Shown here in pieces: positions 5,601-29,860 of a DNA stretch of 64,000 nucleotides. The first letter of the stretch is position 1. Every line of letters starts with the position of its first letter. This DNA is from Bacteroidales bacterium (GTDB taxonomy: Bacteria > Bacteroidota > Bacteroidia > Bacteroidales > UBA3663). The notes below the pieces were generated by a model. The model made no database searches. It was not told the origin of the DNA and saw nothing but the letters and a program-made list of their open reading frames with translations. The translations under genes and the position numbers were made by a program. The stretch is from contig JAZRVB010000121.1 in assembly GCA_045598885.1 (NCBI GenBank), forward strand, positions 3,987-67,986, read 5' to 3'.

Positions 5601-5611
5601 ATTGCAATGGG

Positions 5612-7330: not shown

Positions 7331-7681
7331 ATGGGAAGCTGGAAGAAGCTGATCATGGGAGAGCCCATGCCGGACAAGGATGATCCTAAGTACAAGGCGC
7401 AGTATGAGAAGGAGGTGGCCACGGGCAGGAAGGTAGCCGAAAGGCTGCACCTCTCGAAGCCTTTCATCAAGGCGCAGGAGTTTGCAAACCGGTACCCTGC
7501 TGCCTTCCTCACGCTGGTCTTCGGTTTCGTCACGCTCTGTCTCTGTATGAACCTGTACAGGATGGCAGATGCCTGGCACAACCGTCCGAAGGAACCGATG
7601 ACAGCCACGGAGGTACAGGAGCAGCTCATCAAGGCCAGGAAGGCGCATACTATAGAAACTAACACAAATATACAGCCATGA
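7331..7681 (+). CDS. traL: TraL-like small conjugative-transposon membrane protein
   Basis: 116 aa with one TM segment (AAFLTLVFGFVTLCLCMNL). It sits between traK and traM as in Bacteroidota CTns. Confidence 0.6.
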   Translation: MGSWKKLIMGEPMPDKDDPKYKAQYEKEVATGRKVAERLHLSKPFIKAQEFANRYPAAFLTLVFGFVTLCLCMNLYRMADAWHNRPKEPMTATEVQEQLIKARKAHTIETNTNIQP

Positions 7682-8901: not shown

Positions 8902-8928
8902 AGTGTAACAGAAAAAAACATCAATAAT

Positions 8929-9771
8929 ATGAAAATGAAGAAGTTTCTTGGACTGGTTGTTACCAGTCTCATGTCCGCAACCGCCCTGAACGCACAGAGC
9001 ACCATCACCGATATGGAGGTGCTCACCGTCAACGAGCATGTCACCACTATCATCACAGCCAGCGAGCCTATCCGCTTCGTTGACATCAGTACCGATATGG
9101 TGGCAGGTGACCAGCCTATCGAGAACACCATCCGTCTGAAGCCCAAGGAGGGCAAGGAAGATGGTGAGATCATGGGCATCGTCACCATTGTCACCGAGCG
9201 TTACCGCACCCAGTACGGTCTCATCTACACCACTGAGATACACGAGGCGGTAACTGATAAGGAGATATGCCTTGCCGACCGCCGTCAGTATAACAACCCA
9301 GCCGTCACCATGAGCACCGAGGATATGTATGCCTATGCCCATAGGATCAGCAGCTCTCCGGCCAACTACCGTGACGTGAGCTATAAGAACCACGGTATGA
9401 GGATGCGACTGAACAACCTCTATAGCATCGGTGACTATTTCTTCGTGGACTACAGTGTCGAGAACGCCACGAACATCAAGTTTGACATCGATGAGATACG
9501 TCTGAAGCTCAATGATAAGAAGATCACCAAGGCTACCAACAACCAGACCATCGACATCAAGCCGACGATGATACTTAACAGAACCACCAGTTTCAAGAAG
9601 GGCTATCGCAATGTAGTGGTCATCAAGAAGATGACCTTCCCTAATGATAAGATACTCACTATAGAGATGAGTGAGAAGCAGATCAGCGGACGCACGCTGA
9701 AGCTGGATATTAACTACGAGGATGTACTCACCGCAGACAGTTTCGATGAGACCCTCCTTAACGTACAGTGA
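8929..9771 (+). CDS. traN: Conjugative transposon protein TraN (DUF4138 type)
   Basis: 280 aa with signal peptide MKMKKFLGLVVTSLMSATALNAQS. Position and size fit TraN. Confidence 0.8.
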   Translation: MKMKKFLGLVVTSLMSATALNAQSTITDMEVLTVNEHVTTIITASEPIRFVDISTDMVAGDQPIENTIRLKPKEGKEDGEIMGIVTIVTERYRTQYGLIYTTEIHEAVTDKEICLADRRQYNNPAVTMSTEDMYAYAHRISSSPANYRDVSYKNHGMRMRLNNLYSIGDYFFVDYSVENATNIKFDIDEIRLKLNDKKITKATNNQTIDIKPTMILNRTTSFKKGYRNVVVIKKMTFPNDKILTIEMSEKQISGRTLKLDINYEDVLTADSFDETLLNVQ

Positions 9772-12019: not shown

Positions 12020-13411
12020 ATGAAAATATCAGTTTCGCTACATAATGCCCCAAAGAAGGGCGAAGACCCAAAACTCAGACAGCTGATCTTCCGAGTACGA
12101 GAGGGCAACAATGATTTGAAGGTACGCACTGACCTCATGGCAGACCCAACACTTTGGGATGAATCGATACCAGGCTACCGACGCACTACCAAGTTGGGCA
12201 AAGGAGGCACAAAGGCATACAATGATAAGTTGCAAGACATCTTCCGACTTATCGAAGCAGACTTTACGCCAATGCGTGATGGCAAGTGGCTAAAGGAAAT
12301 CATCAATGGCTATCTTCACCCAGTTGTAGAGCAAGCAAAAACCTTCTCACCTCTACCATGCGAGGATGATGAGAAGGACACTTCGCTTGAAAACCTTGAC
12401 AAAGGCTCAGTTCCAGAGTGGTTCAAGAAATTTGTCGAGCGATGCGATGTCAGCCAAGGCAGAAAGGCTTGCTACCTTTCCACCATCAAAAAACTCCGTC
12501 GCTATGAGCTGTACAAACGAGAGTTTGAAGGTCAGGAAGGATTCAACCTATATCCAGATACCTTCACAATAGATGATCTCTATGACTTCTTTGACTATGT
12601 CGAGAATGAGTACATCTACTATGATGAGCATTTCGAGTGGTACTGCCAGTTCCACATCGGCAAGAAGCCACCTGTAAAGTACACCGACAACTATCTCATG
12701 ACTGTCAAGAGTCATTTCCGAGCATTCATGAACTGGATGACCAAGAACGGCTATAGTTCCAACATGGAATATAAGAAGTTAAAACTCAAAGCCGATGTCT
12801 ATGCAGACCCTATCTATCTCACACTTGAAGAGCGTGACAAGGTCTATTATGCAGACCTTAGCAAGCATCCGACTCTGAGCCTTTATAGGGATATGTTCAT
12901 GTTCCAGTGTCTTGTAGGTTGCCGAGTGTCTGACCTTTATGCTTTCACTACTCGCAACATTACACCTGATGGCTTCATTGAGTTCCTTCCTGCGAAGACG
13001 CGAGAGAATGCGGTCGAAGGCGCACCGTCTTCATTCTGCCGTGTGCCTCTCAATGAGAAGGCTATGGAGATTGTCAACCGCAACATGGATAAGCGCAGTG
13101 GTCGTCTCTTCCCATATCGCAATAAGAATATGTATGCGTATGGCATCAAGATGCTGCTCTTGCTCTGTGAGATTGACCGCATGGTGACAGCCAGAGATCC
13201 TGACACAAAGGAGTTCAATCGCTTCCCACTGTATATGGTTGCAACAACCCATACCGCGAGAAAGACCTTCATTGCCAATGTCTATAAGAAGGTAAAAGAC
13301 CCAGACTTGATCTGTTCTATGACAGGTCACATGCCTGGCTCCAAGTCCTTCCGTCGCTATCGTCACATAGATGACGAATGCAAGTGGGAAGCCCTTGAAG
13401 GCATAGAATAA
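12020..13411 (+). CDS. Tyrosine site-specific integrase
   Basis: 463 aa. 'LVGCRVSD', 'TTHTARKTFIANVY...MTGHMPGSKSFRRYRHI' (R..H.R..Y catalytic pattern). Confidence 0.9.
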   Translation: MKISVSLHNAPKKGEDPKLRQLIFRVREGNNDLKVRTDLMADPTLWDESIPGYRRTTKLGKGGTKAYNDKLQDIFRLIEADFTPMRDGKWLKEIINGYLHPVVEQAKTFSPLPCEDDEKDTSLENLDKGSVPEWFKKFVERCDVSQGRKACYLSTIKKLRRYELYKREFEGQEGFNLYPDTFTIDDLYDFFDYVENEYIYYDEHFEWYCQFHIGKKPPVKYTDNYLMTVKSHFRAFMNWMTKNGYSSNMEYKKLKLKADVYADPIYLTLEERDKVYYADLSKHPTLSLYRDMFMFQCLVGCRVSDLYAFTTRNITPDGFIEFLPAKTRENAVEGAPSSFCRVPLNEKAMEIVNRNMDKRSGRLFPYRNKNMYAYGIKMLLLLCEIDRMVTARDPDTKEFNRFPLYMVATTHTARKTFIANVYKKVKDPDLICSMTGHMPGSKSFRRYRHIDDECKWEALEGIE

Positions 13412-13443
13412 CATTGATTGTCTAACCACCCAAGAACAAGAAG

Positions 13444-14772
13444 ATGAAAGTTACAGCATTTATCCGTCAGAAGACTGTTGCCAAGAACAACACTACTGAC
13501 AAAAGTACGATATTCTTCCGCATCCGTGATGGCAAACTCGACATCAAGGTTGCCAGTGAGCTCTCTATCAATGCGAACCACTGGAGCGATGACCGCCAAG
13601 GCTACAAGCTTCGTGTGAACACCGTATCTGATGCAGTGAAAAGGGAACTCGACCGCAAGGTCAGGGAGATCACCGATCTTATCAATGACAAGTATCACAA
13701 GGGAGTTGATGGCAAGTGGCTGAAGCATCTGATCCAGTTGTATCACCATCCCAACATGATCTATGCAGAAGATGGCATCGACACCCGACTGACAAGTCAG
13801 ATTACTGAGTACTACAATCATAGAAAGGTCGCTACTTGCACCATCTATACGGCTCATACCATCATCAAGAAGATACAGCGTTTCGAGCAGTACATGCAGA
13901 CCGTCAAGCGACGCAAGGGTTATGTCATGTATGCAGAAGCCATCACCGAGGAAGACCTTTATCTTTTCAAGGAGTACTGTCTTGATGAGTATCTGATCTC
14001 ACAGGATTATCCAGAACTCTTCGAGAACGTGAAGCCATGGCAGAAGCCCAGAGCGGAAATGTCAGAGAATGGTGTCTATGACATCCTTCACAGACTCCGC
14101 ACCGTCATGAAGTGGATTGACTTCAACGGCATACCAACAACCAAGCCTTTCAGCCGCTTCGAGTTGAAGGCTCCAACGTATGGTACTCCGTGGTATCTCA
14201 CTCTTGAAGAAAGAGACAAAATCTGGAACCTTGATCTGTCAGGCGAGAAGAACCAGTTGAAGTTCCATCGTGACATCTTCATTTTTCAGTGCTGTGTCGG
14301 CTGTCGTATGGGTGATATTGGCAGATTCACCAAGGACAACATCGTCAATGGTGCTCTGGAGTATATTCCACATAAGACTGCCGAAAGTTCAGGCAGACTT
14401 GTACGAGTTCCGCTGAACCAGAAGGCTCAGGAGATACTGAACAGGTACAGTTGGCGCAAGACTACCTTGCTTCCTTACTTCGTGGATTTCGAGTACAACG
14501 AGGGTATCAAGACACTCTGTACCATGGCAGGTGTCACTCGCATCGTTTCGGTACTCGACCCGAAGACTCGTACCGAGGTGAAGAAGCCACTCAATGAGAT
14601 TGCAAGCAGCCACATGGCTCGACGCACCTTCATCGGCAACATGTACAAAAAGGTCAAGGATCCAGACCTTATTGGCTCGATGTCTGGTCATGTCGAAGGC
14701 TCCAAGGCTTTCGCCAGATACCGCACCATCGATGATGACATGAAGCGTGAACTCGTTGACATGATCAACTGA
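13444..14772 (+). CDS. Tyrosine site-specific integrase (tandem paralogue)
   Basis: 442 aa, collinear with the 12020 protein. 'CVGCRMGD', 'SSHMARRTFIGNMY...MSGHVEGSKAFARYRTI'. Confidence 0.9.
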   Translation: MKVTAFIRQKTVAKNNTTDKSTIFFRIRDGKLDIKVASELSINANHWSDDRQGYKLRVNTVSDAVKRELDRKVREITDLINDKYHKGVDGKWLKHLIQLYHHPNMIYAEDGIDTRLTSQITEYYNHRKVATCTIYTAHTIIKKIQRFEQYMQTVKRRKGYVMYAEAITEEDLYLFKEYCLDEYLISQDYPELFENVKPWQKPRAEMSENGVYDILHRLRTVMKWIDFNGIPTTKPFSRFELKAPTYGTPWYLTLEERDKIWNLDLSGEKNQLKFHRDIFIFQCCVGCRMGDIGRFTKDNIVNGALEYIPHKTAESSGRLVRVPLNQKAQEILNRYSWRKTTLLPYFVDFEYNEGIKTLCTMAGVTRIVSVLDPKTRTEVKKPLNEIASSHMARRTFIGNMYKKVKDPDLIGSMSGHVEGSKAFARYRTIDDDMKRELVDMIN

Positions 14773-16670: not shown

Positions 16671-17072
16671 GTGAAGGAGGCTATTATGAATAAAACCTCT
16701 AAACCCCAACCCCCAATATCTTCTCGTAAACATAAGGGTGGTCGTCCACCCATTCCTGAGGAACAGAAGCGTACCTGCTGCAAGAAGGTTTACTTCACAA
16801 AGGAAGAGTCTGAATGCGTAGAACTCGCTGCTGATGAGAACAACATGTCTGACTCAGAGTACATCAACCAGATGACTATGAACGGCAAGGTGGTAGCACC
16901 AATCTCGCCAGAATTTGCAAGGGACTTTCGATCCGTTGCGAATCTGTCAGGTAATCTCAACCAGTTGGCATACCAGGCCAACAAAGGTGGCTACCATACT
17001 GTGGCAAATGAACTGCTCGCAGAACGGTCAAGGCTGAAGGCTGTACTCAATAAACTCTACAGCTGGGTATGA
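16671..17072 (+). CDS. MobC-like mobilization (relaxosome accessory) protein
   Basis: 133 aa. 'GGRPP...KKVYFTKEESECVELAADENNMSDSEYI' and 'NLSGNLNQLAYQANKGG' match the ribbon-helix-helix MobC pattern. It overlaps the relaxase start. Confidence 0.75.
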   Translation: MKEAIMNKTSKPQPPISSRKHKGGRPPIPEEQKRTCCKKVYFTKEESECVELAADENNMSDSEYINQMTMNGKVVAPISPEFARDFRSVANLSGNLNQLAYQANKGGYHTVANELLAERSRLKAVLNKLYSWV

Positions 17073-18154
17073 TGCCGAAGATAAGTAACGGTTCTACCTT
17101 CGGTGGAATCGTCAATTACGCAAATGACATCAAGGACAAGGGGACAACAATCCTCGCGTCTCGTGGAGTGGATCTGACGAACAACTACACTATAGCGCAG
17201 TCGTTCAAGATTCAGGCTATGATGAACCAGCGAGTACAGATTTGTGTCGGACACTTTGCTCTCAGTTTTCCTCCTGAAGATGCACATCGCTGCACTGACG
17301 GATTCATGCGTAAACTGGCAATGGAGTATATGAAGAAAATGGGCATTACTGATACCCAGTTTGTCATCTTCCGACACCATGACCACGATCATGACCATGT
17401 GCATGTAGTGTATAACCGAGTCAATGATTCCGGCAAGACCATATCTGACGGATGTGATGTAGAAAGGGCAATCGCCATATGTCAGGCGATGACCAGACAC
17501 TATGGTCTTCACTGGAGCGATGGCAAGATGAACGTCAACCGCAACAGGCTCAAAGGCAAGGCTGTTGTCAAGTATGCCATCTTCGACGCAGCACAGAAGG
17601 CGTTGGCTGGCAGTCAGACGTGGAACGGTTTCATCGAGCGTATGAAGGAACAAGGCATTCAGGTCAAGGTTGCACCTCGTGATGATGGCAAGGGCATGGG
17701 CATCGTCTTCACCAAAGGCAATGTCTCTATGAGTGGTTATCAGGTTGACCGACGCAGCCTGACTTTCTACAAGCTCAACCAGCACTTGTACAACATCAAT
17801 GATCTGTTGCCAAGAGACCAGTGGCTACCCGACGAGCCAAGGATCTCTGAGGGCAATTACGACGAGTCTCAGTCTGATGCACGTCTGCCGAAAGTGTCCT
17901 TTAACAAGTCAGACGAGTATGTCGAGGACAGTAGCGTTAATATCTATGATGAGAATAACGATTCTGCCTTTTTTGATACCGACTCGGCTGCCGAAGTTGC
18001 TTCCAACGTGGCTGCTGCAGCTGTTGAACTGGTGACTGGTCCAGCTGTGGTTCCGACCTCAGGAGGTGGCGGCGGTGGCAGTTCCAGTGGCTGGGGCGAC
18101 GACGACGATGACGACGAGAAGAAGAAACGGAACACACCAAGGTTCCATCGTTAA
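17069..18154 (+). CDS. Relaxase/mobilization nuclease
   Basis: 361 aa. 'VGHFALSFPPED' and the histidine triad 'HHDHDHDHVHVVYNRV' are typical of MobA/VirD2-type relaxase domains. It has a Gly/Asp-rich low-complexity tail. Confidence 0.85.
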   Translation: MMPKISNGSTFGGIVNYANDIKDKGTTILASRGVDLTNNYTIAQSFKIQAMMNQRVQICVGHFALSFPPEDAHRCTDGFMRKLAMEYMKKMGITDTQFVIFRHHDHDHDHVHVVYNRVNDSGKTISDGCDVERAIAICQAMTRHYGLHWSDGKMNVNRNRLKGKAVVKYAIFDAAQKALAGSQTWNGFIERMKEQGIQVKVAPRDDGKGMGIVFTKGNVSMSGYQVDRRSLTFYKLNQHLYNINDLLPRDQWLPDEPRISEGNYDESQSDARLPKVSFNKSDEYVEDSSVNIYDENNDSAFFDTDSAAEVASNVAAAAVELVTGPAVVPTSGGGGGGSSSGWGDDDDDDEKKKRNTPRFHR

Positions 18155-18168
18155 TAACTTTACAGAAT

Positions 18169-19131
18169 ATGGGAAATAACACATCAAAACTAAAACCTGC
18201 AAGGGCAATAAGCAGGGAGAAGATCAAGGAAGTGGAAGGGAAATCGGAGAATGTTTCTTCTCCTGTTGCCTCTTCACGGAACGGATTCGTTCAACCTACT
18301 GAGCCTACAGACCAGAGAGAGGATCCTGATGTTATCGTTCCTATCTGTCAGCCGGATTCTGAACCGCCAGACGAGTCGGAAGACTTGGATGTGCCAGAAG
18401 AATTTACTGACAAGATACTCGGTGACATCTCAGTTCATGACTTCTGCTTTGTCATTGAAACCGTTTATAACTCTCTGCTCGATAATCGTGCTGAAGCGAT
18501 GCGCAAAGCACGAGAAGAGAGAATCCGCCAGCAAGAGGAATCTGGTATTGATATTATCACTCCAGAGAATGCTCTTATGAAGTGTGTGGAATACATGAAT
18601 GGTATCAAAGAGAATTACGACCAGTACAAGGCGCAGAAGAATGCAATCGCCAAGGAACAGGCAGAGACTAAGGAAACGGTCAAATTGCAAGCAGAAACCG
18701 TCAAACGACTGGAAACGGTAATTGGCAGGATTGAAGACGTGCAGGGTGTCAAGGCTCCCAAGCGACCACCATTCCCTTCATGGGCATGTCTGACATACCT
18801 ATTCTGGCACTGGCCAATGTACTGTTTCGCTTATTGCTGGCAGTCGAAGTACTTCCGCAGATTCTGCTTCCTGATCACATTCCTTGTGATAGTAGTGCAG
18901 TTCTGTATGATTGTTCTTTTGGCAAGCGACAATAAGAATTTGACTCATGACCATGCAAAATATGTCACTGTCAGAAACTGGTCATACGTGATGAAGGACA
19001 CGGCAGCCATCAATCGTTTCAATCGTGTGGACTTACTCTTTGAAGATGTCAAGTTCAACCGAGAGCAGATTGAAGAACTGGACGAGTTCATCCGTACTAA
19101 GCATGAGAAGAACCAGAAGCGTCGCAAGTGA
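18169..19131 (+). CDS. Hypothetical protein, acidic N-terminal half, C-terminal TM segments
   Basis: 320 aa in an operon position after the relaxase. TM stretches 'WPMYCFAYCW' and 'FCFLITFLVIVVQFCMIVLLA'. No recognisable family. Confidence 0.5.
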   Translation: MGNNTSKLKPARAISREKIKEVEGKSENVSSPVASSRNGFVQPTEPTDQREDPDVIVPICQPDSEPPDESEDLDVPEEFTDKILGDISVHDFCFVIETVYNSLLDNRAEAMRKAREERIRQQEESGIDIITPENALMKCVEYMNGIKENYDQYKAQKNAIAKEQAETKETVKLQAETVKRLETVIGRIEDVQGVKAPKRPPFPSWACLTYLFWHWPMYCFAYCWQSKYFRRFCFLITFLVIVVQFCMIVLLASDNKNLTHDHAKYVTVRNWSYVMKDTAAINRFNRVDLLFEDVKFNREQIEELDEFIRTKHEKNQKRRK

Positions 19132-19160
19132 TAGGCTTGCTACGTCACTCTATTAAAATT

Positions 19161-19192
19161 GGCGCACCATCCGTAGTGGGTGATGCGCCTTT
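19161..19192 (+). terminator. Candidate intrinsic terminator after the mob operon
   Basis: GGCGCACCA...TGATGCGCC stem followed by TTT. It sits between the convergent genes ending at 19131 (+) and 19244 (-). Confidence 0.5.
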
Positions 19193-19243
19193 GATGATTA
19201 TTGTAGAACTCTATTATTTGAGATTATATAATTCCGTATTTCT

Positions 19244-20041
19244 TTACATTTTTTCTACCCATTTAACCACTCTAATACTCAATTCAAAAAGTAAGTATAA
19301 TGGTATAGTTACCAAAATGAGTGTCATTACGTCAGGTGGTGTAATAATGGCAGCTACAAACATTATAACAAGAAATGCATGTTTCCGGTATTCTGAAAGT
19401 AAATCAGAAGAAATGAATTCCATCTTTGCCAATGCAAATGCTATAACTGGTAATTGAAATACTAATCCCATGACTAGGGTCAGGGTTGTGAAAGTACTTA
19501 CATAACTATCCAGCGTAATGGTACTATGTACTCGATCTGCAACACTATACGTTCCAAGAAACCGAAAGGAAATTGGAAATAGTATATAGTAACTCATTAA
19601 CACTCCAAGAATGAAAAGAAAATAAATAACAGCAGCAATCTGTATAGAGTATTTCTTTTCACTTTCATACAGCGCAGGAGAAATGAAACGAAATAATTCA
19701 AATAGAATGTATGGCGATGCTCCAAGCAATCCTAAATATACAGCTGTGGTGATGTGTGTCATAAACTGGGATGACAAGTCGGTAGCTATGAGATCCACAT
19801 TGAATTCATCGAAATGGAAATCAGAAAAACCGAGCGAATGCATCACCGACTCTATCCATTGATATGTACAGAAGTTCCATTCGCTCGGAGCAAGCAACAT
19901 GTTCCAAGTGACACTTTTGAAACAGAACACTACAGCAGAAAGCACTCCTGCTACACCAAGAATGCGAAACAACATCTGGCGGAACACCTCAAGATGTCCG
20001 CCAAATGTGAGCATAGAACTGGTATCGTTACTGCTCGCCAT
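19244..20041 (-). CDS. tatC: Twin-arginine translocase subunit TatC
   Basis: Start taken at MASSND... (the track ORF starts at 20071). '[17 protein letters not shown]' matches the conserved TatC N-terminus, and the protein is polytopic with about six TM segments. Confidence 0.85.
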
Positions 20042-20294
20042 CCTTCTTTTCTTCCTTCCTCTCACCTTCATTCAGAGGTGAGGTTTTTCCTTCTTCTGTT
20101 GGCTGTTCTGATTGATTATTGTCACTTTCACCTTTAACGTCGTTCATACCTTGCTTGAACTCTTTGACACCTTGTCCAAGTCCACGCATCATTTCAGGCA
20201 GTTTTTTGCCTCCAAACAATAATAAAGCTAACCCTCCGATAAGAAGTAGTTCTGTTGTTCCTATAAAAAGGAATGGTATTCGAAGAAAAATCAT
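20028..20294 (-). CDS. tatA: Twin-arginine translocase subunit TatA/E
   Basis: 88 aa. A single N-terminal TM segment is followed by '[26 protein letters not shown]', the canonical TatA hinge and amphipathic-helix signature. Confidence 0.85.
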
Positions 20295-20296
20295 AC

Positions 20297-20569
20297 TTAA
20301 TAAACTAAATAAATTTCACGTGTCTCAAAATCGATTTCCCAGTTTCCTCCTTCTACAAACTCCCACTGGTACTTTTCAGCCATAGTATCCCACCACTTTT
20401 GAAAATTTGTACAAGTTTCGCCAAGATCCTTTACAAGCTTTTCGTATAATTCAGTATTATCTTTGGTTAAGATTAAAGCCAATTCGTTAAGTCCATTACG
20501 ACGTTCGAAAAGCGCTTGAATAGTGTCTCTTTCTTCAACAGTTACCTGTCCTACAGTTTTCTTTTGCAT
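20297..20569 (-). CDS. Small (90 aa) partner protein of CXXX-repeat peptide modification systems
   Basis: Tightly packed between the SPASM gene and tatA. Acidic, predicted helical, no signal peptide. Recalled to match the family NCBI labels 'CXXX repeat peptide modification system protein'; not verified by search. Confidence 0.55.
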
Positions 20570-20576
20570 AACAAAT

Positions 20577-21581
20577 TTAGTTTATTAGTTTTTTAATCCA
20601 ATCTTTGCGAATATCGAAAGGGTCAAGATATGAAATCTCTTCAATGACTTTTCCTTGTAAGAAAACTCCGTGTTTTCTGATAGACTCAAGCAGGTATCTA
20701 CTTGCATTGCGTTCAAGATGTGCAACTACACATTGCTCATGACTTGGGGTGTTAACTTCGGTTGTTGTTCTACGATTAAGCCAGATGCAGCGTTTGCAAT
20801 GATACGCATCACAATTTCTACACAAGGGCGCATGCGAAATCTTGAATAATTGAGGATTCTTTATATCTAATCCATTCTCTAAAGAGCCAAGGTCAAACCC
20901 TTTACAACAAACTTCAGACAAAGACTGTTCGGTGCCTTCAAGTTGCGGATCAAGATAAAAAGCAGGACAAATATAAAAATGACCATCAGGTGCAAGTGTT
21001 ATGGTTGTATCACCAGCACCACAATTATTCATTTTATCAAGCAGCATTCGATCTGTTATCAGATTAAACTGAGGAGAATTTCCATTTATATATAAAGTAG
21101 TTAGCTCATCAGCCCAATCACATAGACATTTTTTGTATGTATCGAAATCATTATTTGAGAAACTTTCAATATCGGTAATAATGATATTTAATCGAGCTAC
21201 TTTCCCAATTATGTTTTTAATCAGATCACGACATGAAAACAAGGTGTTTTTATCAATCCTAATTACATATGCCTTCTTTTCATCATAATGATAATCAGCA
21301 ACCTCTTCAAGTTTGCTCATCACAACTATGTCTGCATCGGAAGTATCAATGCAAGATGGCATTATTTTGTTATGATCGATTGTCTCTACAACATCTTTGT
21401 ATTCTTGTGGTAGTTCATAACCTGGATATACAAACTGAATCATCAAGTTTTCCTTCATTCCAAAGAAAATTCCCTTTTTTAAGTTTTCAATTGAAATAAG
21501 TTGATGTTCTGTATTGCTATTACTGTAATGGCAATATGATGTACTTGTACGATCAAGTAATATAACTAAGTATTGAAGCAT
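20577..21581 (-). CDS. SPASM-domain protein, radical-SAM-like but lacking the CxxxCxxC cluster ('CXXX repeat peptide maturase' type)
   Basis: 334 aa. The C-terminal Cys set 'NNCGAG...YICP...CCKG...LCRNCDAYHCKRCIW...EQC' has SPASM/twitch character. The N-terminus has only 'SYCHY' where the SAM-cluster motif would be. Confidence 0.7.
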   Translation of the reverse strand: MLQYLVILLDRTSTSYCHYSNSNTEHQLISIENLKKGIFFGMKENLMIQFVYPGYELPQEYKDVVETIDHNKIMPSCIDTSDADIVVMSKLEEVADYHYDEKKAYVIRIDKNTLFSCRDLIKNIIGKVARLNIIITDIESFSNNDFDTYKKCLCDWADELTTLYINGNSPQFNLITDRMLLDKMNNCGAGDTTITLAPDGHFYICPAFYLDPQLEGTEQSLSEVCCKGFDLGSLENGLDIKNPQLFKISHAPLCRNCDAYHCKRCIWLNRRTTTEVNTPSHEQCVVAHLERNASRYLLESIRKHGVFLQGKVIEEISYLDPFDIRKDWIKKLIN

Positions 21582-21585
21582 ATTT

Positions 21586-22809
21586 TTAGCAAATTATATT
21601 ACTATTTTTTTTATTTTTTTTGGCCTCAAACTCCTCACGCTTGCCTTCTAACTCCAATTTGCGATAGAGTTTGTTCCAATAATAATTATTAGCTCGAACA
21701 CGTGCTTTGTGCATCTTGCATATTGCTGTAGCACGTTGATAGGTTGTAGGAGTGTCAGCTGCATCATAGTTCTCACCTTGACACCAAGCACAACCACTAG
21801 CGACTTCGCATTCAACGCACTCCGGATTTGATTGAGTACAACGATCTATAGTTAATAAAGGTCGAAGTTTATTGAAATCTAAACCGTCATTGATATTTCC
21901 AACTATCAAAGGTAGTTTGTTCCTTAACGAATATTGTGCAAATCGAGTGCATGGGTAAAAGTTGCCAGCTGCATCTACAGCAAGCATATTACCAGCGCCA
22001 CACCAATTTGTATTGTCCAACACTTTATCCATAGGTTTTCCTAATTGCTCCCAGAAGAAAGAACAAGAATTGTCTATGTATAGATCATTGTCAATAATAG
22101 CATCAGCTAAATCTATTAGCTGTCTTTCCAACTTCAGATCGTCATTTTCTTTCCAAACTTGCTCAAAAACGCAATTGATGTTTACGTCATGAATACCAAT
22201 TGAGAATAAATGTAAAACACTATCCTTGATATAATCGATATTTGAGCTTGTGATTGTAACTTTTGTTGTGGCTACAGGAAATTGGGTTAAATATAGAGGT
22301 ATATTTTTAACAACATCCTCATAGGATCCTTTGTAACTTTCTTTATATACTCTATTGGTATCATGTAGCTGTTTAGTGCCATCTATTGTAATAGTAACAC
22401 TTAAATGATCAAGGTTCTTTTGAATGAACTTTTGAACTTTTTCGTTATGATAATTAATACCATTTGTAGAAAAGTTGAATCTATAAGAATTAAACCATTT
22501 GTGGTTTCTTCTAAACATCTCTACTTTTATATAATCACAAATTCTATCAATCAGATCAATTTCCAAGAAAGGTTCACCTCCAATGAAATCCCAAACTACA
22601 GACTCTTCATTGAAATAGTTATCGTTATCAAGAACATAGTCTATAGCTTTTTTGGCGACTTCCCAAGACATCCTTTCTTTAGTGTTCTTCCCGACTAGAT
22701 AGCAATATTTACAAGCCAACTGGCAATCCTTTGTTACAATAAAAGTGATTTCCCTTGCAACTCCACTTTGCCAAGCAATATCGTCAACTTTAATTCCTAG
22801 CTCTTTCAT
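21586..22809 (-). CDS. Radical SAM/SPASM peptide maturase
   Basis: Start taken at MKELGIK (the track ORF starts at 22842). 'TKDCQLACKYCY' is CxxxCxxC. The C-terminal 'NWCGAG...FYPC...CVECEVASGCAWCQGE...AICK' is a SPASM domain. Confidence 0.85.
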   Translation of the reverse strand: MKELGIKVDDIAWQSGVAREITFIVTKDCQLACKYCYLVGKNTKERMSWEVAKKAIDYVLDNDNYFNEESVVWDFIGGEPFLEIDLIDRICDYIKVEMFRRNHKWFNSYRFNFSTNGINYHNEKVQKFIQKNLDHLSVTITIDGTKQLHDTNRVYKESYKGSYEDVVKNIPLYLTQFPVATTKVTITSSNIDYIKDSVLHLFSIGIHDVNINCVFEQVWKENDDLKLERQLIDLADAIIDNDLYIDNSCSFFWEQLGKPMDKVLDNTNWCGAGNMLAVDAAGNFYPCTRFAQYSLRNKLPLIVGNINDGLDFNKLRPLLTIDRCTQSNPECVECEVASGCAWCQGENYDAADTPTTYQRATAICKMHKARVRANNYYWNKLYRKLELEGKREEFEAKKNKKNSNIIC

Positions 22810-22878
22810 ATTACAGAAAAGGGCACCAAAACAAATGCCCAAAAAGCAAATGTTTTGATGCCAATTAAATTTGATAAA

Positions 22879-23226
22879 TTAGTTTTTGCCTACGCCCTTA
22901 CATGCATAGTGACTACAACCGCCTGTACAGGTTGTACTACAGCTAGTACAGCTGTGAGAACAAGTGCCTGTACATGTAGTGCTACAACCTCGGCAACTGT
23001 GAGAGCAAGTGCCTGTACATGTAGTACTACAACCCTTACATGCACCATAGCATGCACCAGTGCAAGTACCAGTGCATCCCATCGGTGAACTTTCTGCTGC
23101 CCTAACGAATGACGGAGTGCTTGCCATTACAAGAGCAGTAAGAATTGGAAGTGCGCCCTTGGCTGCTTTTTTGAAGAATTCACGTCTAGACTGAAGTTCT
23201 TCATTGTTGTTCATTTTCTTATCCAT
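22879..23226 (-). CDS. Tat-signal, Cys-rich CxxxC-repeat precursor peptide
   Basis: 115 aa. Twin-arginine motif 'SRREFFKKAA', hydrophobic region, and 'VRA-AE' cleavage-type site. The ~65-aa core holds 16 Cys spaced mostly every 4 residues (GCTGTCTGACYGACKGCSTTCTGTCSHSC...). Confidence 0.85.
   Translation of the reverse strand: MDKKMNNNEELQSRREFFKKAAKGALPILTALVMASTPSFVRAAESSPMGCTGTCTGACYGACKGCSTTCTGTCSHSCRGCSTTCTGTCSHSCTSCSTTCTGGCSHYACKGVGKN
22954..23034. repeat. 45-bp-period tandem repeat inside the precursor gene
   Basis: GTGAGAaCAAGTGCCTGTACATGTAGTgCTACAACC (22954-22989) recurs at 22999-23034 with 2 mismatches. A third, more diverged copy lies at ~22909-22953. Each unit encodes a C-STT-C-TGT-C-SHS-C module. 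Confidence 0.85.
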
Positions 23227-23298
23227 GGTTTAAGAATTTAGAACAGACCTATAGTTCCAAGATTCAGTCGTTGTTTTATTAATGTGATTAACAGACAT

Positions 23299-23339
23299 AA
23301 AAAAAGACGTGGAACTTTCATTGTTGCTCGTTCTACGTC
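23299..23339 (-). terminator. Candidate intrinsic terminator or attenuator ~75 nt upstream of the precursor start
   Basis: Minus-strand RNA GACGUAGAAC...GUUCCACGUC (10-bp stem, 1 mismatch) is followed by U7 (plus-strand A7 at 23299-23305). Confidence 0.5.
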
Positions 23340-23554
23340 AGGAGGCCTTCGCATTGCCCAAGATTGTTGAACGGAGCAACGCGAAGTCCACGCCAGATAT
23401 GTATATAATACACCCTACACCAATAATTTGACACTAAACCCTCAATGTTAAGGGAATTTGTATCAAACAATAGGAATAAGGACATGAATATAAACACATC
23501 CCGAAGACATTCATCGTTGCAATGTTCTGACAATCTTTAAGAAAGTTGCGAAGT

Positions 23555-23570
23555 TTCCTGACGTCAGGAA
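23555..23570. promoter_or_regulatory. Perfect 16-bp palindrome TTCCTGACGTCAGGAA (possible dimeric regulator site)
   Basis: Read directly from the sequence. It lies in the ~1.1 kb ORF-poor spacer upstream of the peptide operon. Confidence 0.3.
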
Positions 23571-24368
23571 CAAAGCGTCAATTGAACGCTTTACCATTAT
23601 GTCGTAATCTCCCGCCCAAAACCCGCTTCAACATCTGATGTTACCACCATCTGTTTCGGCTTGGCGTGGACTTTAATAGATTCTATTTTGCAAGCTTATC
23701 TCGTATTGGCATTATACCTTTCGTGATGTGCCTTTCAAATAAATCTAATTAAGGAAATCAAGTGCAAAAATAGCAATAATATTCAAAATGTTTCTAAAAA
23801 AATGAAGAAAATAATCACAAGAGTTAAATAGTTATTTAAATTCATAGCCGAATGTAATTTGAATGTTGCATTTTTGTTAATTAGAGATATCAATCTTATT
23901 CTATTATACATTGCATTTTTATCTATGAGTCCACTTGAAGAAGTCTTGGCCTAAAAAAGTGCTTACAAAATGATATTTGATCTATCCCTACACTAAGAAA
24001 AGAGGGGCAAATCTCCCTATATTGAGGTAATTTAAGACTGAAATTCGTCTTTGTTGGACAATTGCAGCCTTGGAATGTAGCAAAATGAAAGCAAAAATTT
24101 TGGAGCTTTCAAAATTGGCACTTTTTCAAGTAGATTCATCTATAAAAAACTCCTTTTTGATATTTTTTATTACTGTACTTGGAATTTCAACCCTGATTGA
24201 AAATGACATAATGTTACAGATTGGGAACGATCCTAATCTTCCAATTAAAATATTTTTTGATATTCAATAGGTTATATCAATACCCATGTATCATTAAGGA
24301 TGGCACATAGGTAGAAAAGTAGGGGCTACAGTAAAGTAACCCCAATGTAAAGATAGACAGTACTCAGA

Positions 24369-24878
24369 TTAGATCTTTCGTTTCAAAGATTTCATCGCCA
24401 GTTCTTGGATTTTGAGTTTAGCTGCTTCCTCAATTTCCTTCTCTGATGCTACTCGGCATGAACGCATCCATTTCAGGAGTTCTTCCTTTTCAAAGTAAAC
24501 GACTTTACCATTAGGCTTGTAGAATGGGATGACTCCTTCATGAGTCATCTTGTAAATAGAACTACGAGACATTCCCAATAAGATAGCAGCATCTTCAGTA
24601 GTGAGCAACTGCTTGCTTTCATACAATACGTTTTCAAGAGACTCTACACGCGCTGTCAGCTTTTCAATCTTCTCTTGAAGTTCTTTCTCCGTCTTAGAAG
24701 GTACAGGAATAGCCTTTGGTGCAGTAGGCGAGTTTTGAACCTTTGGTGCTACAGGAACACTCTTTTGTCCACTCTGATCAGACGTTAATTGCTTAACGAA
24801 CTCCGCGAGCTCGGCAGCAGAAATCTCAAAATTCACTTGTGAAGTCTGAGCCATTTCTAATTTTTCTTTGATACTCAT
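24369..24878 (-). CDS. Helix-turn-helix (excisionase-family) DNA-binding protein
   Basis: 169 aa. The C-terminal half 'LLTTEDAAILLGMSRSSIYKMTHEGVIPFYKPNGKVVYFEKEELLKWM' is a classical Xis/MerR-type HTH. It sits ~430 bp from the right end of the inserted element. Confidence 0.75.
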   Translation of the reverse strand: MSIKEKLEMAQTSQVNFEISAAELAEFVKQLTSDQSGQKSVPVAPKVQNSPTAPKAIPVPSKTEKELQEKIEKLTARVESLENVLYESKQLLTTEDAAILLGMSRSSIYKMTHEGVIPFYKPNGKVVYFEKEELLKWMRSCRVASEKEIEEAAKLKIQELAMKSLKRKI

Positions 24879-25300
24879 AAAAGTTTATATATTGATACCA
24901 GTGGCAATATCGCCACCTATATAATATAATACTCTTTTCCCTACCTTCAAAGATGATCTTTCCAATTAACACTCTGGGGTAATAGTGTTAAAAATGCAAC
25001 GACAAAAGCAGATTCTTGGGTAACTATTTTCTTAATTCAAGAAAAATATGTATCTTTGCATCCAGTTAGATGTGAGTTCTAACACTTTCACTTGATTCAA
25101 TTTTGCCCACAAAACCAGAATCTTTTTTCGGGCATCGTTTTTAGTTCTTTGAATAAGCGTTTTTGAACGCTAAATACCTCCAACGGACGTTAACAACCTA
25201 ATATCATTTAACGTCAAAATATCGGGAACACGTTGGGAACAATCCCCATTTTTCTCATTTTCCAAACTTTGATTATCAGCATTTTAACTACCACCTAAGT

Positions 25301-26911
25301 CCCACTTTTCGTGGCACCTGGGTCGTAGGTACTCCTGGTTCTGGTAAGACCTTCTCCATCATCGAGCCGTTCCTCAGACAGCACAGTGAGAAGGGCTTTG
25401 CGATGGTTGTGTACGACTACAAGTTTCCTACGCTGGCCACCAAGCTCTATTACCACTATCTGAAGAACAAGAAGGAGAAGAAGTTGCCTGAAGGATGCAG
25501 TTTCAATGTCATCAATTTCGTCAATGTGGAGTACAGCCGACGGGTCAATCCTATTCAGCACAAGTATATCGAGAACCTTGCCGCTGCCTCAGAGACAGCC
25601 GAGACACTGCTTGAATCTCTTCAGAAAGGCAAGAAGGAGGGAGGCGGTGGCGGTAGTGACCAGTTCTTCCAGACTTCTGCCGTCAACTTCCTGGCTGCCT
25701 GTATCTATTTCTTTGTCACGTATAAGATGGAACCCTACGATAAGGATGGCAATGTCCTGCACATGAAGGAGATATGGAGCCCTGCACATAACAAGAATGT
25801 GCCTGATAAGGGTCATGCCTATGACGATGCCGGCAATGAGGTAGTACCTGCTTACTGGCTGGGCAAGTATTCGGATATGCCGCATATCCTGAGCTTCCTG
25901 AATGAGAGCTATCAGACTATCTTCGATGTCCTTCAGACCAACAATGAGGTAGCCCCTCTGTTAGGACCGTTCATGACCGCCTTGAAGAATAAGGCTATGG
26001 AGCAGTTGGAAGGTATGATCGGTACGCTCCGTGTCTATACCAGCCGACTCGCAACCAAAGAGTCTTACTGGGTGTTCCATCGTGACGGTGATGACTTCGA
26101 CCTTCAGGTGTCCAACCGTAAGAATCCGAGCTATCTGCTTATCGCCAATGATCCTGAGATGGAGAGTATCATTGGTGCTCTGAATGCGCTGATCCTCAAT
26201 CGTCTTGTCACCCGTGTCAATCAGGGTCAGGGCAGGAACGTGCCAGTCAGCATCATTGTGGATGAGTTACCTACCCTCTATTTCCATAAGATAGACCGAC
26301 TCATCGGTACGGCACGAAGCAACAAGGTAGCCGTTACCTTGGGCTTCCAGGAGTTGCCGCAGCTGGAGGCAGACTACGGTAAGGTGGGTATGCAGAAGAT
26401 CATCACTACCGTAGGTAATGTGGTCTCAGGCTCTGCCCGTAGCAAGGAAACGCTCGAATGGCTTAGCAACGATATCTTCGGTAAGGTGGTACAGCTGAAG
26501 AAGGGTGTCACCATCGACAGAGACCGTACCAGCATCAACCTGAATGAGAATATGGACAATCTCGTTCCTGCTTCCAAGATCAGTGACTTGCCTACTGGCT
26601 GGATTTGTGGTCAGACTGCACGCGATTTCGTGCAGACCAAGGTAGGCCATAATGGCAATATGAATATCCAAGAGGCAGAGGAGTTTCAGACCACTAAGTT
26701 CTTCTGTAAGACCAACTTCGATATGAAGGCCATCAAGACCGAGGAAGAGAACTACAGGGAGCTGCCAAAGTTCTATAAGTTCCCTTCCAAGGAGGCTAAG
26801 GAGCGTATCCTCTACACCAATTTCATACAAGTCAACAAGGACATAAAGGATATGATCAATGATGTCTTTGGGCGCAACAAGCAGCAGCCAGAGACACCCA
26901 AGAAACAATAA
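25301..26911 (+). pseudogene. Type IV coupling protein, C-terminal ATPase fragment
   Basis: The frame reads '...PTFRGTWVVGTPGSGKTFSIIEPF' (Walker A) with no start codon before it. The track ORF begins at an internal Met (25403). Also 'GGGGGSDQFFQTSAVNFLAACIYFF' and Walker B-like 'SIIVDELPTL'. Confidence 0.85.
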
Positions 26912-27028: not shown

Positions 27029-29860
27029 TTAGAATCTATCATACTCTCGACAATCACTTTTTCTATCTGTTTTTGTACTAAGTATCTCATGCAGCAGAGT
27101 GGTAATCTTTTCTTCTTCTCTGCTATCTGTTGTGCTACAGCGTAAGAGTGGGATTCCATTTTTTTTGAAGATGCTATCTTTCTTCATATCGCGTTCTTTC
27201 TGCTCATTGGCAGTTTCAGCATAGTGGAACTGATAGCCATCTGTCTCAATTGCCAGAATTGGCTTGTTTGTGAGTTTGTTGAAAATCAGCAAGTCTGTAT
27301 GAGACATTGTATTCCGGACGAATGACCTTTCTTCATCAGTCATCTGAGAGTCTTTTCCAAAAATATTCTTTAGAGAATAATTTGTGTGAACAGCCAGTTG
27401 TTCAAACTCGGGTTCTTTAAGGATGCGGTCACGTACTAGCTGAAGCATGAGTATTTCCGCTGGAGATTTTACAGACTCCTTCTTCATCTGTTTCTCATAA
27501 ACTTCATCAAGGTGTGTATAGAGAATATCAAAGATTGAATGAATCTTACTCTCGATTACCTCTCCGCAGTTGTACTCTATATAATCAACCAAATCAGAAA
27601 TGATTCTGTCTTTAGGTAACTCATTTCCTGTTACAACAAGATACAGTTCTTCTTTTGCTCTCGATATAGCTACATTCATAAGGCAAGGGTCATCGACAAA
27701 GTCATTAGGTTTGTCTGCAACGTAATCCATAATAATTACATCATTCTCCTGACCTTGGAATTTATGTACTGTATCAACCTTGGTAATGCGAGATTTTGCC
27801 TGTAGAAGATTCTCTATTGTTGCCACTTGATCTCTGTATGCGGCAACAATGCCTACATCCTTGCCTGCCAGTTTGTCGATTACCTCATCTGAGATAATCT
27901 GTGCTTCACGTAGGTTGACCGTACCACGAGCATGATTGCCGGCAACAGAACGTATGACGTGAAGAGGTTTACTATTTTCGTTGTCCTTGGACATTATCAC
28001 CAACTCTCCGTGATAAAACTCTTTATTGCAGAAGTTGATGATTTTTGGATGGCAGCGATAATGCTCTCGCAATAGGGTAGACCCGATTTGTCCATCCAAT
28101 ATATGCACAACTGACTCCAAGAAACTATACTTTGAGCAGTCGTAATATTCATTCAAAGTATTAGGGAAAAGCTGTTCAAGCTTTGGCTTTACGTCGTTTG
28201 AAATAACAGTAGGTAACTGTTTCAGATCACCTACTATAACCACATTCTTCGCTATAGATAAAGACAAAGCTCCTTGAGTAATAGACACTTGAGACGCTTC
28301 GTCCATTATTACATAATCGTATTCTACATTTTTTAGAAAACGTGCAGAAAATGCAGTACTCAGAATAATAGGATATTGTTGAATAATAGACAGTGCGTTC
28401 TTTTCTGACTTAAGTTCAGAATAATCTGAGTAAACTATCCGGTTAAGATGTTTGCTGGTTTTATTAAGATATTGCTTCAGATAGTCCATAGAGCTATCTG
28501 TCAGTTTTTTCAACAAACCATTAGCGTCAACTTTCTTGTTTTCTTCGACACATTTGTTTTTTTCTGTCAATAATTCATTTCGCCTGACTTTGTAGTACAA
28601 GCTCTGAGCTGCAAATACTATTGCATTTACTCTTTCTGGACAGAGAACCTCTTTGTTAATGCCGTAAATAAAACGACATTTGAAAAGAAATAATAAATTC
28701 TTCAGTCTTGAAAAAATATGATTCTTTTTACCAAGTAGCACTTTCGGCAGTATCGTAAAAATGGCTGAAAGTTGCGCTGAAGACAGGTTCGGTGTGATTA
28801 GGCCTTCATCAATGTCATCTTTATGATTTGTCTGAAAATGGTTCTCCTCTGTATCTAATTCCAACAGATTTTGATCTATCTGGGCAATAGTCTCGTTGTT
28901 TTCAAAAACATGTTTCAATTGTGATGAAATATGATCTATCTCATCCAACGACATACCTTCTTTGTTCCATTCTGAAATTTCAGGAGGAACAGTCTTGTCA
29001 CTTTGACTTCTAAGGAAATATTCACAATTGTCTCTATTGCCTAATTTAGCGTTAAGATAATCGAATCCGCTTTTTTTCAGTTTGTCGACTACGTTCTGTA
29101 TGGCAGAATTATTTCCAGATACCACAAGAACAGTCTTTCCTTGAATGAGAATATTGGCAATGATGTTGAGGATAGTCTGCGTTTTGCCAGTTCCTGGAGG
29201 TCCTTGTATAACGCTTATCTGATTTTCGAATGCGGCATTGACCGCCTTTAATTGGCTACCATTACTACCAAAAGGAAATATGCAAGGCTGATGTATAATG
29301 TTTCGTTTAGCTTTGTATTTCTCTGGGTAAAGGTAGGAAGCAAGAGCCGAATACTCTGGTACATAGGAAATCTTATCATAGTTTTGCCTAAGACTTATTT
29401 CGCCATTTTCCGAATTTGTCGGAATTACCGAAAGACTGGCAGCTTGCTTGAAATAGTCGAAAGCATTGTTCTTATCAAAGCCATCAATGCAAGGAGAGAT
29501 CACAATAAGTTCATTAGGACTATATAACCTTGTAGAACCATCTGTTTTTTTGATTCTCCAATATTCTTCTTTGCCAACAGCAAATCGAATTGCCTCTGAA
29601 ATATAATCTTTGCTAATTTCGTTGTTATATCTTGGGTCAATTAAAGTGTAGGAATTTATATCAACGTGCTCACCCTTTTCACAATAACGAACATTTATTG
29701 TTTGTGCACGAAAAGGGGTGTCATAATACTTGTTTTTGTAAAGATAATTGCCTTTGCCTTTATTCTCAAACTGTACCCATTCAACCTCATCGGTCAAATC
29801 TTTCCAGAATTGACCACCATCTTTTTTGGGTATTAAAACTAAGAATAAAAAGTCATTCAT
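27029..29860 (-). CDS. SF1 (Upf1/DNA2-like) helicase fused to a C-terminal DUF2726-type PD-(D/E)XK nuclease-like domain, with an unknown ~200-aa N-terminal domain
   Basis: 943 aa. 'IQGPPGTGKTQ' (Walker A), 'VIMDEASQ', 'VGDLKQLP', 'EHYRCHPKI', 'VHKFQGQENDVII', 'NVAISRAKEEL'. The C-terminus is 'HTDLLIFNKLTNKPILAIETDGYQFH...RDMKKDSIFKKNGIPLLR'. The gene is visibly AT-rich. Confidence 0.8.
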   Translation of the reverse strand: MNDFLFLVLIPKKDGGQFWKDLTDEVEWVQFENKGKGNYLYKNKYYDTPFRAQTINVRYCEKGEHVDINSYTLIDPRYNNEISKDYISEAIRFAVGKEEYWRIKKTDGSTRLYSPNELIVISPCIDGFDKNNAFDYFKQAASLSVIPTNSENGEISLRQNYDKISYVPEYSALASYLYPEKYKAKRNIIHQPCIFPFGSNGSQLKAVNAAFENQISVIQGPPGTGKTQTILNIIANILIQGKTVLVVSGNNSAIQNVVDKLKKSGFDYLNAKLGNRDNCEYFLRSQSDKTVPPEISEWNKEGMSLDEIDHISSQLKHVFENNETIAQIDQNLLELDTEENHFQTNHKDDIDEGLITPNLSSAQLSAIFTILPKVLLGKKNHIFSRLKNLLFLFKCRFIYGINKEVLCPERVNAIVFAAQSLYYKVRRNELLTEKNKCVEENKKVDANGLLKKLTDSSMDYLKQYLNKTSKHLNRIVYSDYSELKSEKNALSIIQQYPIILSTAFSARFLKNVEYDYVIMDEASQVSITQGALSLSIAKNVVIVGDLKQLPTVISNDVKPKLEQLFPNTLNEYYDCSKYSFLESVVHILDGQIGSTLLREHYRCHPKIINFCNKEFYHGELVIMSKDNENSKPLHVIRSVAGNHARGTVNLREAQIISDEVIDKLAGKDVGIVAAYRDQVATIENLLQAKSRITKVDTVHKFQGQENDVIIMDYVADKPNDFVDDPCLMNVAISRAKEELYLVVTGNELPKDRIISDLVDYIEYNCGEVIESKIHSIFDILYTHLDEVYEKQMKKESVKSPAEILMLQLVRDRILKEPEFEQLAVHTNYSLKNIFGKDSQMTDEERSFVRNTMSHTDLLIFNKLTNKPILAIETDGYQFHYAETANEQKERDMKKDSIFKKNGIPLLRCSTTDSREEEKITTLLHEILSTKTDRKSDCREYDRF

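Follow-up and report, generated by a model that had tools for sequence, protein, structure and literature searches.

A Bacteroidales operon joining a Tat-signal Cys-X3-repeat peptide and a putative three-part radical SAM/SPASM maturase to its own TatA and TatC

Why would one operon encode a cysteine-rich peptide behind a twin-arginine translocation (Tat) signal, the radical S-adenosylmethionine (SAM) and SPASM proteins that might modify it, and a TatA and TatC besides? The question is posed by six co-oriented open reading frames (ORFs) on the minus strand (19244-23226) of a 64,000-nucleotide stretch of DNA from a Bacteroidales bacterium (GenBank contig JAZRVB010000121.1, positions 3,987 to 67,986), called the window below. 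The answer favoured here, at a probability of roughly 60 per cent, is that the Cys-X3 core of the peptide is cross-linked in the cytoplasm by a three-part maturase and then exported by the operon's own TatAC, with the product more plausibly an envelope-located peptide than a bacteriocin. Peptide maturation by radical SAM/SPASM enzymes and Tat export of folded cargo are each well known, and no report of a natural pathway that joins them was found.

Read down the operon, the genes encode a 115-aa precursor, a radical SAM/SPASM enzyme, a SPASM-only paralogue, a 90-aa acidic protein, TatA and TatC, separated by +69 (or +36), +4, +7, +2 and, for the last pair, -44, -14 or +13 nt, depending on the start chosen. 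A preliminary description made from the sequence had listed these six minus-strand ORFs, gaps of -14 to +69 nt and the same gene identities; all six are present, the computed gaps match, and NCBIfam and Pfam profiles judged by their curated cut-offs return the expected families. TIGR04115 covers the radical SAM protein over the full model (positions 1-359) at 596.3 bits (cut-off 350), TIGR04119 the SPASM-only protein at 228 bits (150) and TIGR04116 the 90-aa protein at 100.5 bits (50), while TatA is matched by TIGR01411 (61.7 bits, cut-off 53.9) and PF02416 (51.9 bits) and TatC by TIGR00945 (146.3 bits, cut-off 132.7) and PF00902 (191 bits, cut-off 25.1). The profile check proposed in that description thus succeeded for the maturase and Tat models; the precursor falls just under its own two models' thresholds, scoring 46.3 bits with TIGR04117 (cut-off 50) and 19.9 with TIGR04114 (cut-off 20).

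These models make up the CXXX-repeat peptide system of NCBIfam (TIGR04114/04117, 04115, 04119 and 04116), with which the locus shares three maturase proteins above cut-off, a cysteine at every fourth residue as read directly from the precursor, and adjacent, co-oriented genes, and it is a typical member of that computationally defined system rather than a one-off. The components of the cassette already carry annotation names, and the family is defined by models. In a literature search that did not extend to subscription journals, no paper was found on the product, chemistry or function of the CXXX-repeat system; TIGR04114, TIGR04116 and TIGR04119 went unmentioned, TIGR04115 appeared only incidentally, and no RiPP (a peptide made on the ribosome and modified after translation) of the ranthipeptide or radical SAM/SPASM-modified kind was reported to be exported by Tat. 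The reviews and compendia of radical SAM RiPP enzymes examined do not mention the family, in agreement with the earlier statement that it exists as computational definitions only. A Tat leader and linked tatAC are absent from the names of the family models. What appears to be new is that the CXXX-repeat family is generally coupled to Tat and, in Bacteroidales, has a tatAC dedicated to it.

The precursor carries both features first ascribed to it, a twin-arginine signal and a core of 16 cysteines. The motif SRREFFK (residues 13-19, nt 23170-23190) is followed by an uncharged h-region, GALPILTALVMASTPSF, and by a c-region, VRA, so that motif, h-region and AxA-type site all fall within the N-terminal 45 residues, as in Tat substrates. 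The basic residue of the c-region, in relatives often found as K-A, is a known Sec-avoidance feature of Tat signals. Cleavage is predicted between VRA and AE and would leave a 72-aa mature part of about 7.0 kDa with all 16 cysteines. These fall between residues 51 and 109, spaced by 3,3,3,2,3,3,3,2,3,3,3,2,3,3,4 residues, three residues being the spacing in 11 of 15 cases, and the peptide ends in HYACKGVGKN, the tail of a small subfamily of precursors with a Y(A/G)CKGV end. No other Cys-repeat ORF occurs in the 64-kb window. Within the core, a 45-nt (15-aa) tandem repeat of 2.5 copies (84 per cent matches, score 158, Tandem Repeats Finder) encodes CSTTCTGTCSHSC(R/T)(G/S) and also appears as direct-repeat family D1, which points to growth of the core by recent internal duplication.

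Across 133 unique precursors, 85 per cent of Cys-Cys gaps are three residues, 7 per cent two and 0.4 per cent one; position X2 is Gly in 36 per cent and position X3 is Ser, Thr or Gly in 73 per cent. The core composition (23 per cent Cys, 16 per cent Ser, 15.5 per cent Gly and 10.5 per cent Thr, hence 42 per cent Gly, Ser and Thr together, with about 6 per cent hydrophobic residues) offers no hydrophobic core, so that by its make-up such a chain must need covalent links or metal to hold it together. Loci encode one to eight precursors with hypervariable cores. Roughly one precursor in four has a lipobox with acidic residues behind it, a sign of surface lipoproteins, and lengths of 200-470 aa and as many as 74 cysteines also occur. 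Others carry a C-terminal domain without cysteines that weakly resembles Fib_succ_major or Lcl_C below threshold. The divergent locus L087 encodes a Tat lipoprotein consisting of a globular domain and then a C-terminal Cys-X3 run. Loci L066 (2760-8215), L037 (5923-6963) and L055 (5580-6992) exemplify the tandem, long and cysteine-richest precursors, and multi-domain precursors were seen at L087 (4051-4710), L048 (4429-5655) and L035 (5739-6461).

The twin-arginine signal is a property of the family and not of this precursor alone. When Cys-X3-repeat ORFs on the operon strand were defined without homology and RRx[FLIVM] was sought before the Cys run, the motif was present in 226 of 239, and the exceptions were mostly truncated ORFs. 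The leader consensus, kkNEELQSRREFFKKAAK.aLPILGA, is conserved far past what Tat targeting needs, in a set that was collected through its resemblance to the precursor of the window and is biased accordingly. Independent support comes from divergent metagenome lineages (33-64 per cent GC, radical SAM scores of at most 570 bits): their precursors read RR(D/G/E)F(L/F)...(I/V)IPT(L/I)G, and the IPT(L/I)G motif of the h-region is shared by divergent loci unlike those of Bacteroidales (L090, L091, L102, L111, L112 and L138). Since these signals occur where no tatAC is adjacent, the Tat-signal leader is old and general in the Gram-negative branch, and the linked tatAC specific to the Bacteroidales clade.

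The radical SAM enzyme has the cysteines expected of a ranthipeptide or sactipeptide maturase, namely the CX3CX2C motif (CQLACKYC, residues 29-36, nt 22702-22725) and SPASM auxiliary-cluster cysteines (C270, C287, C324, C331, C334, C340, C343 and C364) that are invariant in the homologue alignment, and it also matches PF04055 and PF13353. Its ATG at 22809 is the most likely start, given that homologues are 401-408 aa long and that the upstream TTG lies inside a hairpin. Among named families, the highest scores are with PapB (194 bits, cut-off 340), CcpM (147, cut-off 500), the SCIFF maturase (120, cut-off 425) and QhpD (TIGR03906, 105, cut-off 453), and the best solved relative is CteB (5WGG, E 1e-25), to residues 94-443 of which residues 16-372 align. 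The alignment starts at CteB residue 94, and the enzyme is without the N-terminal RiPP recognition element (RRE) that is fused in CteB; lacking a fused leader-binding domain of its own, it probably leaves the leader to be read by the 90-aa subunit or else by the SPASM-only protein, through its N-terminal domain.

The SPASM-only protein has eight cysteines (17, 187, 205, 254, 257, 262, 265 and 284) that are invariant over 74 homologues and an Anaerococcus fusion. Seven follow the SPASM pattern, CX3CX2C is absent, and HHalign places residues 131-283 against residues 211-358 of the radical SAM protein at 87 per cent probability, over the C-terminal half only, so that the label of SPASM-only paralogue was a fair one. 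The N-terminal 130 residues were considered as a decayed radical SAM barrel and this was not supported, the HHalign match being confined to 131-283, with a BLAST E of 0.71 and a PDB profile E of 500 for the domain. The 90-aa protein (pI 4.55) has a Trp-rich C-terminal half and a weakly helix-turn-helix (HTH)-like N-terminal half, HTH_38 matching 26 of 35 members weakly and below threshold; across 35 loci the columns average 73 per cent identity, and a profile search of the PDB gave no sequence match (best E 0.21).

Gene fusions tie these parts together. The 90-aa family forms 544 clusters at 50 per cent identity among 1.84 billion representative proteins, and most members stand alone; in seven clusters it extends a SPASM-only protein at the C-terminus, and in one it is fused to a full radical SAM enzyme (P0173, P0174, P0183, P0188, P0222, P0237, P0269 and P0265). 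The radical SAM and SPASM-only proteins are themselves fused in Anaerococcus (L085 204-2390), hence every pair of the three maturase parts occurs as a fusion, which argues for one three-part maturase. The strongest co-divergence is that of the SPASM-only protein with its 90-aa partner (rho 0.50). By the same fusions, the 90-aa protein is a maturase subunit and not a Tat-specific chaperone. The NapD, TorD and DmsD type of Tat chaperone was rejected for it, there being a homologue in the Tat-less Anaerococcus cluster, fusions to maturases and no fold or sequence match.

Scanning a single genome for each species gave at least 599 pattern matches, at least 519 of them encoding a relative, and the maturase is highly conserved, at 70 per cent identity or more, in more than 500 species-representative genomes. 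The best 80 loci were analysed for gene order; almost all are labelled Bacteroidales (Prevotellaceae, Muribaculaceae, Bacteroidaceae, Paludibacteraceae and Lentimicrobiaceae), and three are short contigs binned to Clostridium or Clostridia genomes. The order of precursor(s), radical SAM, SPASM-only and partner genes holds in 80/80, with TatA next in 59 and TatC in 54, which is 54 of the 68 loci with enough downstream sequence, and such an arrangement is not chance. The nearest relative, at 99 per cent identity, has the same gene block on a 3.8-kb contig. Flanks vary from locus to locus (an 82 per cent identical relative is chromosomal, beside PorU and PorV), and clustering of the other adjacent ORFs yielded no further conserved neighbour, whether protease, ABC exporter, immunity gene or regulator. 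With its order conserved, its flanks unrelated and no other neighbour kept, the cassette is self-contained and movable; both the operon's autonomy and its private TatAC, claimed at the outset with a neighbourhood survey suggested as the check, are backed by these comparisons. By these counts, the cassette is common in gut Bacteroidales and not unique to the window. Loci without an adjacent TatC were richer in lipoprotein-only precursors (8/14 against 13/54, Fisher p = 0.025); those with lipoprotein-type precursors only are L005, L007, L008, L029, L030, L034, L052 and L057.

The sole plasmid match, Anaerococcus prevotii pAPRE01, shows what the core genes do in other company. As in the window, a TIGR04115-type radical SAM module (49 per cent identity) and a SPASM-only module are accompanied by a homologue of the partner and by a CX3-repeat precursor, but the first two are fused into a 728-aa protein, the precursor is 56 aa long with four CX3-spaced cysteines and no Tat signal, and an ABC transporter stands where tatAC would. 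From this replacement in a Firmicute, the export module is exchangeable, Tat in Bacteroidales and an ABC transporter there. The pAPRE01 homologue of the 90-aa protein (L085 2392-2648) is split over two frames, with no more than a 41-aa fragment annotated, owing either to a frameshift or to an error in the deposited sequence.

A sequence of events may be proposed from this architecture. The 115-aa precursor would be made with its twin-arginine signal, which probably doubles as the leader, and the radical SAM enzyme, the SPASM-only protein and the 90-aa subunit would modify the Cys-X3 core in the cytoplasm, most likely by a series of intramolecular thioether (S-C) cross-links of the kind made by PapB and CteB. 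Radical SAM chemistry requires SAM and a low-potential reductant, and its enzymes act in the cytoplasm; since, in addition, none of the three maturase proteins matches a secretion-related family in NCBIfam or Pfam, cytoplasmic maturation followed by Tat export is the best-supported order. The branched product, without a hydrophobic core and too bulky for the narrow Sec pore, would then leave through the operon's TatA and TatC, because a multiply cross-linked, branched chain is not expected to pass Sec. Signal peptidase I would cut after VRA and free a product of about 72 aa and 16 cysteines into the periplasm, and in the lipobox relatives the product would become a lipoprotein. The Sec pore has likewise been argued to be too narrow for cyclic lanthipeptides, with Tat raised as an alternative and preliminary attempts to use it unsuccessful (PMC5686179).

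If this model holds, Gram-negative bacteria could move branched, cross-linked peptides over the inner membrane without an ABC exporter, and peptide engineers would gain the route earlier speculated about and tried in vain (PMC5686179). The six-gene system is compact, and the peptide or protein family it serves is abundant in gut and rumen Bacteroidales. A bolder version, in which the twin-arginine signal doubles as the RiPP leader for a three-subunit maturase and Tat is the natural exporter of a cross-linked Cys-X3 ladder, would amount to an undescribed export route and a new class of cross-linked envelope material in hundreds of gut Bacteroidales species; it is tentative, with the odds leaning somewhat against it.

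Comparison with characterized systems sharpens the proposal. PapB with PapA (freyrasin) and CteB with CteA (thermocellin) also set a radical SAM/SPASM maturase on a Cys-rich ribosomal peptide. Within CX3D/E motifs, PapB joins a Cys to an Asp or Glu, in the same four-residue register as Cys-X3 (PMC9413430). Here, in contrast, residue i+4 is Cys and not Asp or Glu, the enzyme lacks the N-terminal RRE and has two extra subunits, and a Tat-signal leader with TatAC export takes the place of an ABC transporter/peptidase. A second precedent is QhpD, a radical SAM/SPASM enzyme that cross-links the cysteines of the small protein QhpC, the gamma subunit of quinohemoprotein amine dehydrogenase, in the cytoplasm before it enters the periplasm; the dehydrogenase is periplasmic, and QhpC is not known to use a Tat signal to get there. 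This locus, unlike that system, has no dehydrogenase genes, and its enzyme scores far below the QhpD cut-off.

Several observations weigh against the proposed pathway. The analysis shows no cross-link directly, and the 133 precursors have no conserved acceptor residue besides Cys, so that bond type and connectivity are not deducible from them. The radical SAM enzyme lies below the cut-off of every characterized maturase family, PapB and SCIFF included. Single-sequence AlphaFold2 (AF2) models help little with the other two subunits: that of the SPASM-only protein is unusable (pLDDT, the per-residue confidence, 37.6), and that of the 90-aa protein (pLDDT 76) has no Foldseek match in the PDB (best E 1.9). 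TatC is not adjacent in 14 of 68 Bacteroidales loci, nor in any of the divergent loci, some of which span 2-6 kb downstream, and pairwise TatC distances do not co-vary with those of the radical SAM enzyme (rho 0.11, a value reached or exceeded by 53 of 500 permutations in a Mantel-like comparison). The operon holds no outer-membrane export or immunity gene. Tat also carries small, unstructured, hydrophilic peptides, and a Tat signal is no proof of a modified cargo.

The most durable of the rival explanations is that the locus makes an antimicrobial RiPP of the classical, secreted type, a bacteriocin of the sactipeptide or ranthipeptide class serving as a competition factor of a mobile element, for which Tat is the inner-membrane step only. 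The layout of a precursor followed by maturases is RiPP-like, the cores are hypervariable with up to eight precursor paralogues per locus, a conjugative or mobilizable element carries the cassette as low-GC cargo here, and sactipeptides and some ranthipeptides are bioactive (PMC8172795). Yet genes for immunity, leader proteolysis, ABC export or outer-membrane export are not conserved, Tat lipoproteins make up about a quarter of the precursors, others run to 200-470 aa, carry up to 74 cysteines or include a globular domain, and so highly conserved a maturase in so many species would be unusual for a bacteriocin. This explanation is unlikely. The same features, that is, the lack of conserved immunity or secretion genes, the lipoprotein and long multi-domain forms and the maturase conserved in hundreds of species, speak for a cross-linked peptide or module that resists proteases and resides in the envelope, which is nonetheless the weakest part of the proposal.

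A core so rich in thiols might instead bind metal as it stands, in the manner of a metallothionein or a copper storage protein (Csp), with free cysteines taking up metal or Fe-S in the cytoplasm, Tat being used on account of that cofactor, and the radical SAM/SPASM proteins in an accessory role. Tat typically exports cofactor-loaded proteins, both maturases have SPASM Fe-S domains, and a core in which Cys makes up 23 per cent, Gly, Ser, Thr and Lys abound and aromatics are few recalls metallothioneins. The spacing does not, however: the CXC typical of metallothioneins makes up only 0.4 per cent of gaps against 85 per cent for CX3C, and the core fits neither a Csp-type helical bundle nor the CXC, CC and CXXC clusters of metallothioneins. 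Csp1 has a Tat signal and many CX3C-spaced cysteines in a four-helix bundle with a hydrophobic core, and it needs no maturase, whereas the Gly/Ser/Thr-rich core here, about 6 per cent hydrophobic and without a Pfam match, is unsuited to such a bundle and is always found with three maturase genes. The closest relatives of the radical SAM enzyme are cross-linking maturases, the maturase trio is obligatory, no metal transporter or chaperone recurs beside the cassette, and in Anaerococcus the core genes function alongside an ABC transporter and a precursor that has no Tat signal. The Csp-like copper store once offered as the alternative is disfavoured by the non-helical composition and by the existence of the core system without Tat, and metal binding in general is quite unlikely. 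Least probable of the three is that tatAC are host housekeeping genes that merely adjoin the cassette with no special tie to it: divergent and several Bacteroides loci do encode RR precursors that must use a Tat encoded elsewhere, and TatC distances do not track those of the radical SAM enzyme, but the genes follow the partner on the same strand across few-base gaps in loci of many families with unrelated flanks, share a low-GC mobile cargo block with the maturase genes in the window, and travel with them in the block that the closest relative carries on its own short contig.

Expression of the cassette may be tuned within the operon. The hairpin and T-run at 22840-22821 sit between the precursor stop and the ATG of the radical SAM gene and may act as a partial terminator, which could yield more precursor relative to enzyme; in a crude scan, a hairpin-like site was present in 12/80 of the relatives' loci against 7.9 by chance. 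Upstream, the minus strand of 23227-24368 has no ORF of at least 60 aa, an Rfam scan of 18900-25500 found no RNA family match, and the strict Bacteroides-type promoter pattern was not matched near the operon. Coordinates are collected in Table 1.

Table 1. Features of the operon and of the mobile-element region that surrounds it, in window coordinates
Feature	Position	Strand	Basis or remark
Precursor gene, 115 aa	22879-23226	-	TIGR04117/TIGR04114 near cut-off; Cys spacing; predicted cleavage
Tat signal peptide and probable leader, residues 1-43	23098-23226	-	Read from sequence
45-nt tandem repeat in core	22921-23034	-	Tandem Repeats Finder
GC-rich hairpin and T-run, possible partial terminator	22821-22840	-	Terminator-like site
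Radical SAM/SPASM maturase, 407 aa	21586-22809 (ATG; TTG alternative 22842)	-	TIGR04115
SPASM-domain paralogue, 334 aa	20577-21581	-	TIGR04119
Acidic maturase subunit, 90 aa	20297-20569	-	TIGR04116
TatA, 88 aa	20028-20294	-	TIGR01411, PF02416
TatC, 275 aa from first ATG	19244-20071 (other starts 20041, 20014)	-	TIGR00945, PF00902
ORF-free upstream region, 1.1 kb, presumed promoter site	23227-24368	-	ORF list, Rfam, promoter pattern
Insertion sequence (IS) DDE transposase	1064-2167		
Four tyrosine recombinases, two pairs	4437-6784 and 12020-14772		
TraM and DUF4138 genes	7678-9771		
NikA-like gene and relaxase	16671-18154		
320-aa ORF between relaxase and cassette	18169-19131		No Pfam match; hydrophobic C-terminal part
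HTH_17 gene	24369-24878		
Type IV coupling protein gene, 5'-truncated	25403-26911		
SF1 helicase with DUF2726 nuclease-like domain	27029-29860		

The surroundings of the cassette are those of a mobile element. Positions 1-32000 of the window are a mosaic of mobile-element parts, and ordinary chromosomal glycoside hydrolase genes of Bacteroidales follow from about 33 kb on. Over 20-24 kb, which takes in most of the cassette, GC content is 35-36 per cent against 43-51 per cent in the flanks, as befits low-GC cargo. The Walker A motif of the coupling protein (GTPGSGKT) lies in frame upstream of its first ATG (25403), in a frame (24881-26911) that is closed by stop codons further upstream. Placed as they are between the relaxase and this 5'-truncated coupling-protein gene, the cassette and the HTH_17 gene look like a cargo insertion that broke a mobilization module.

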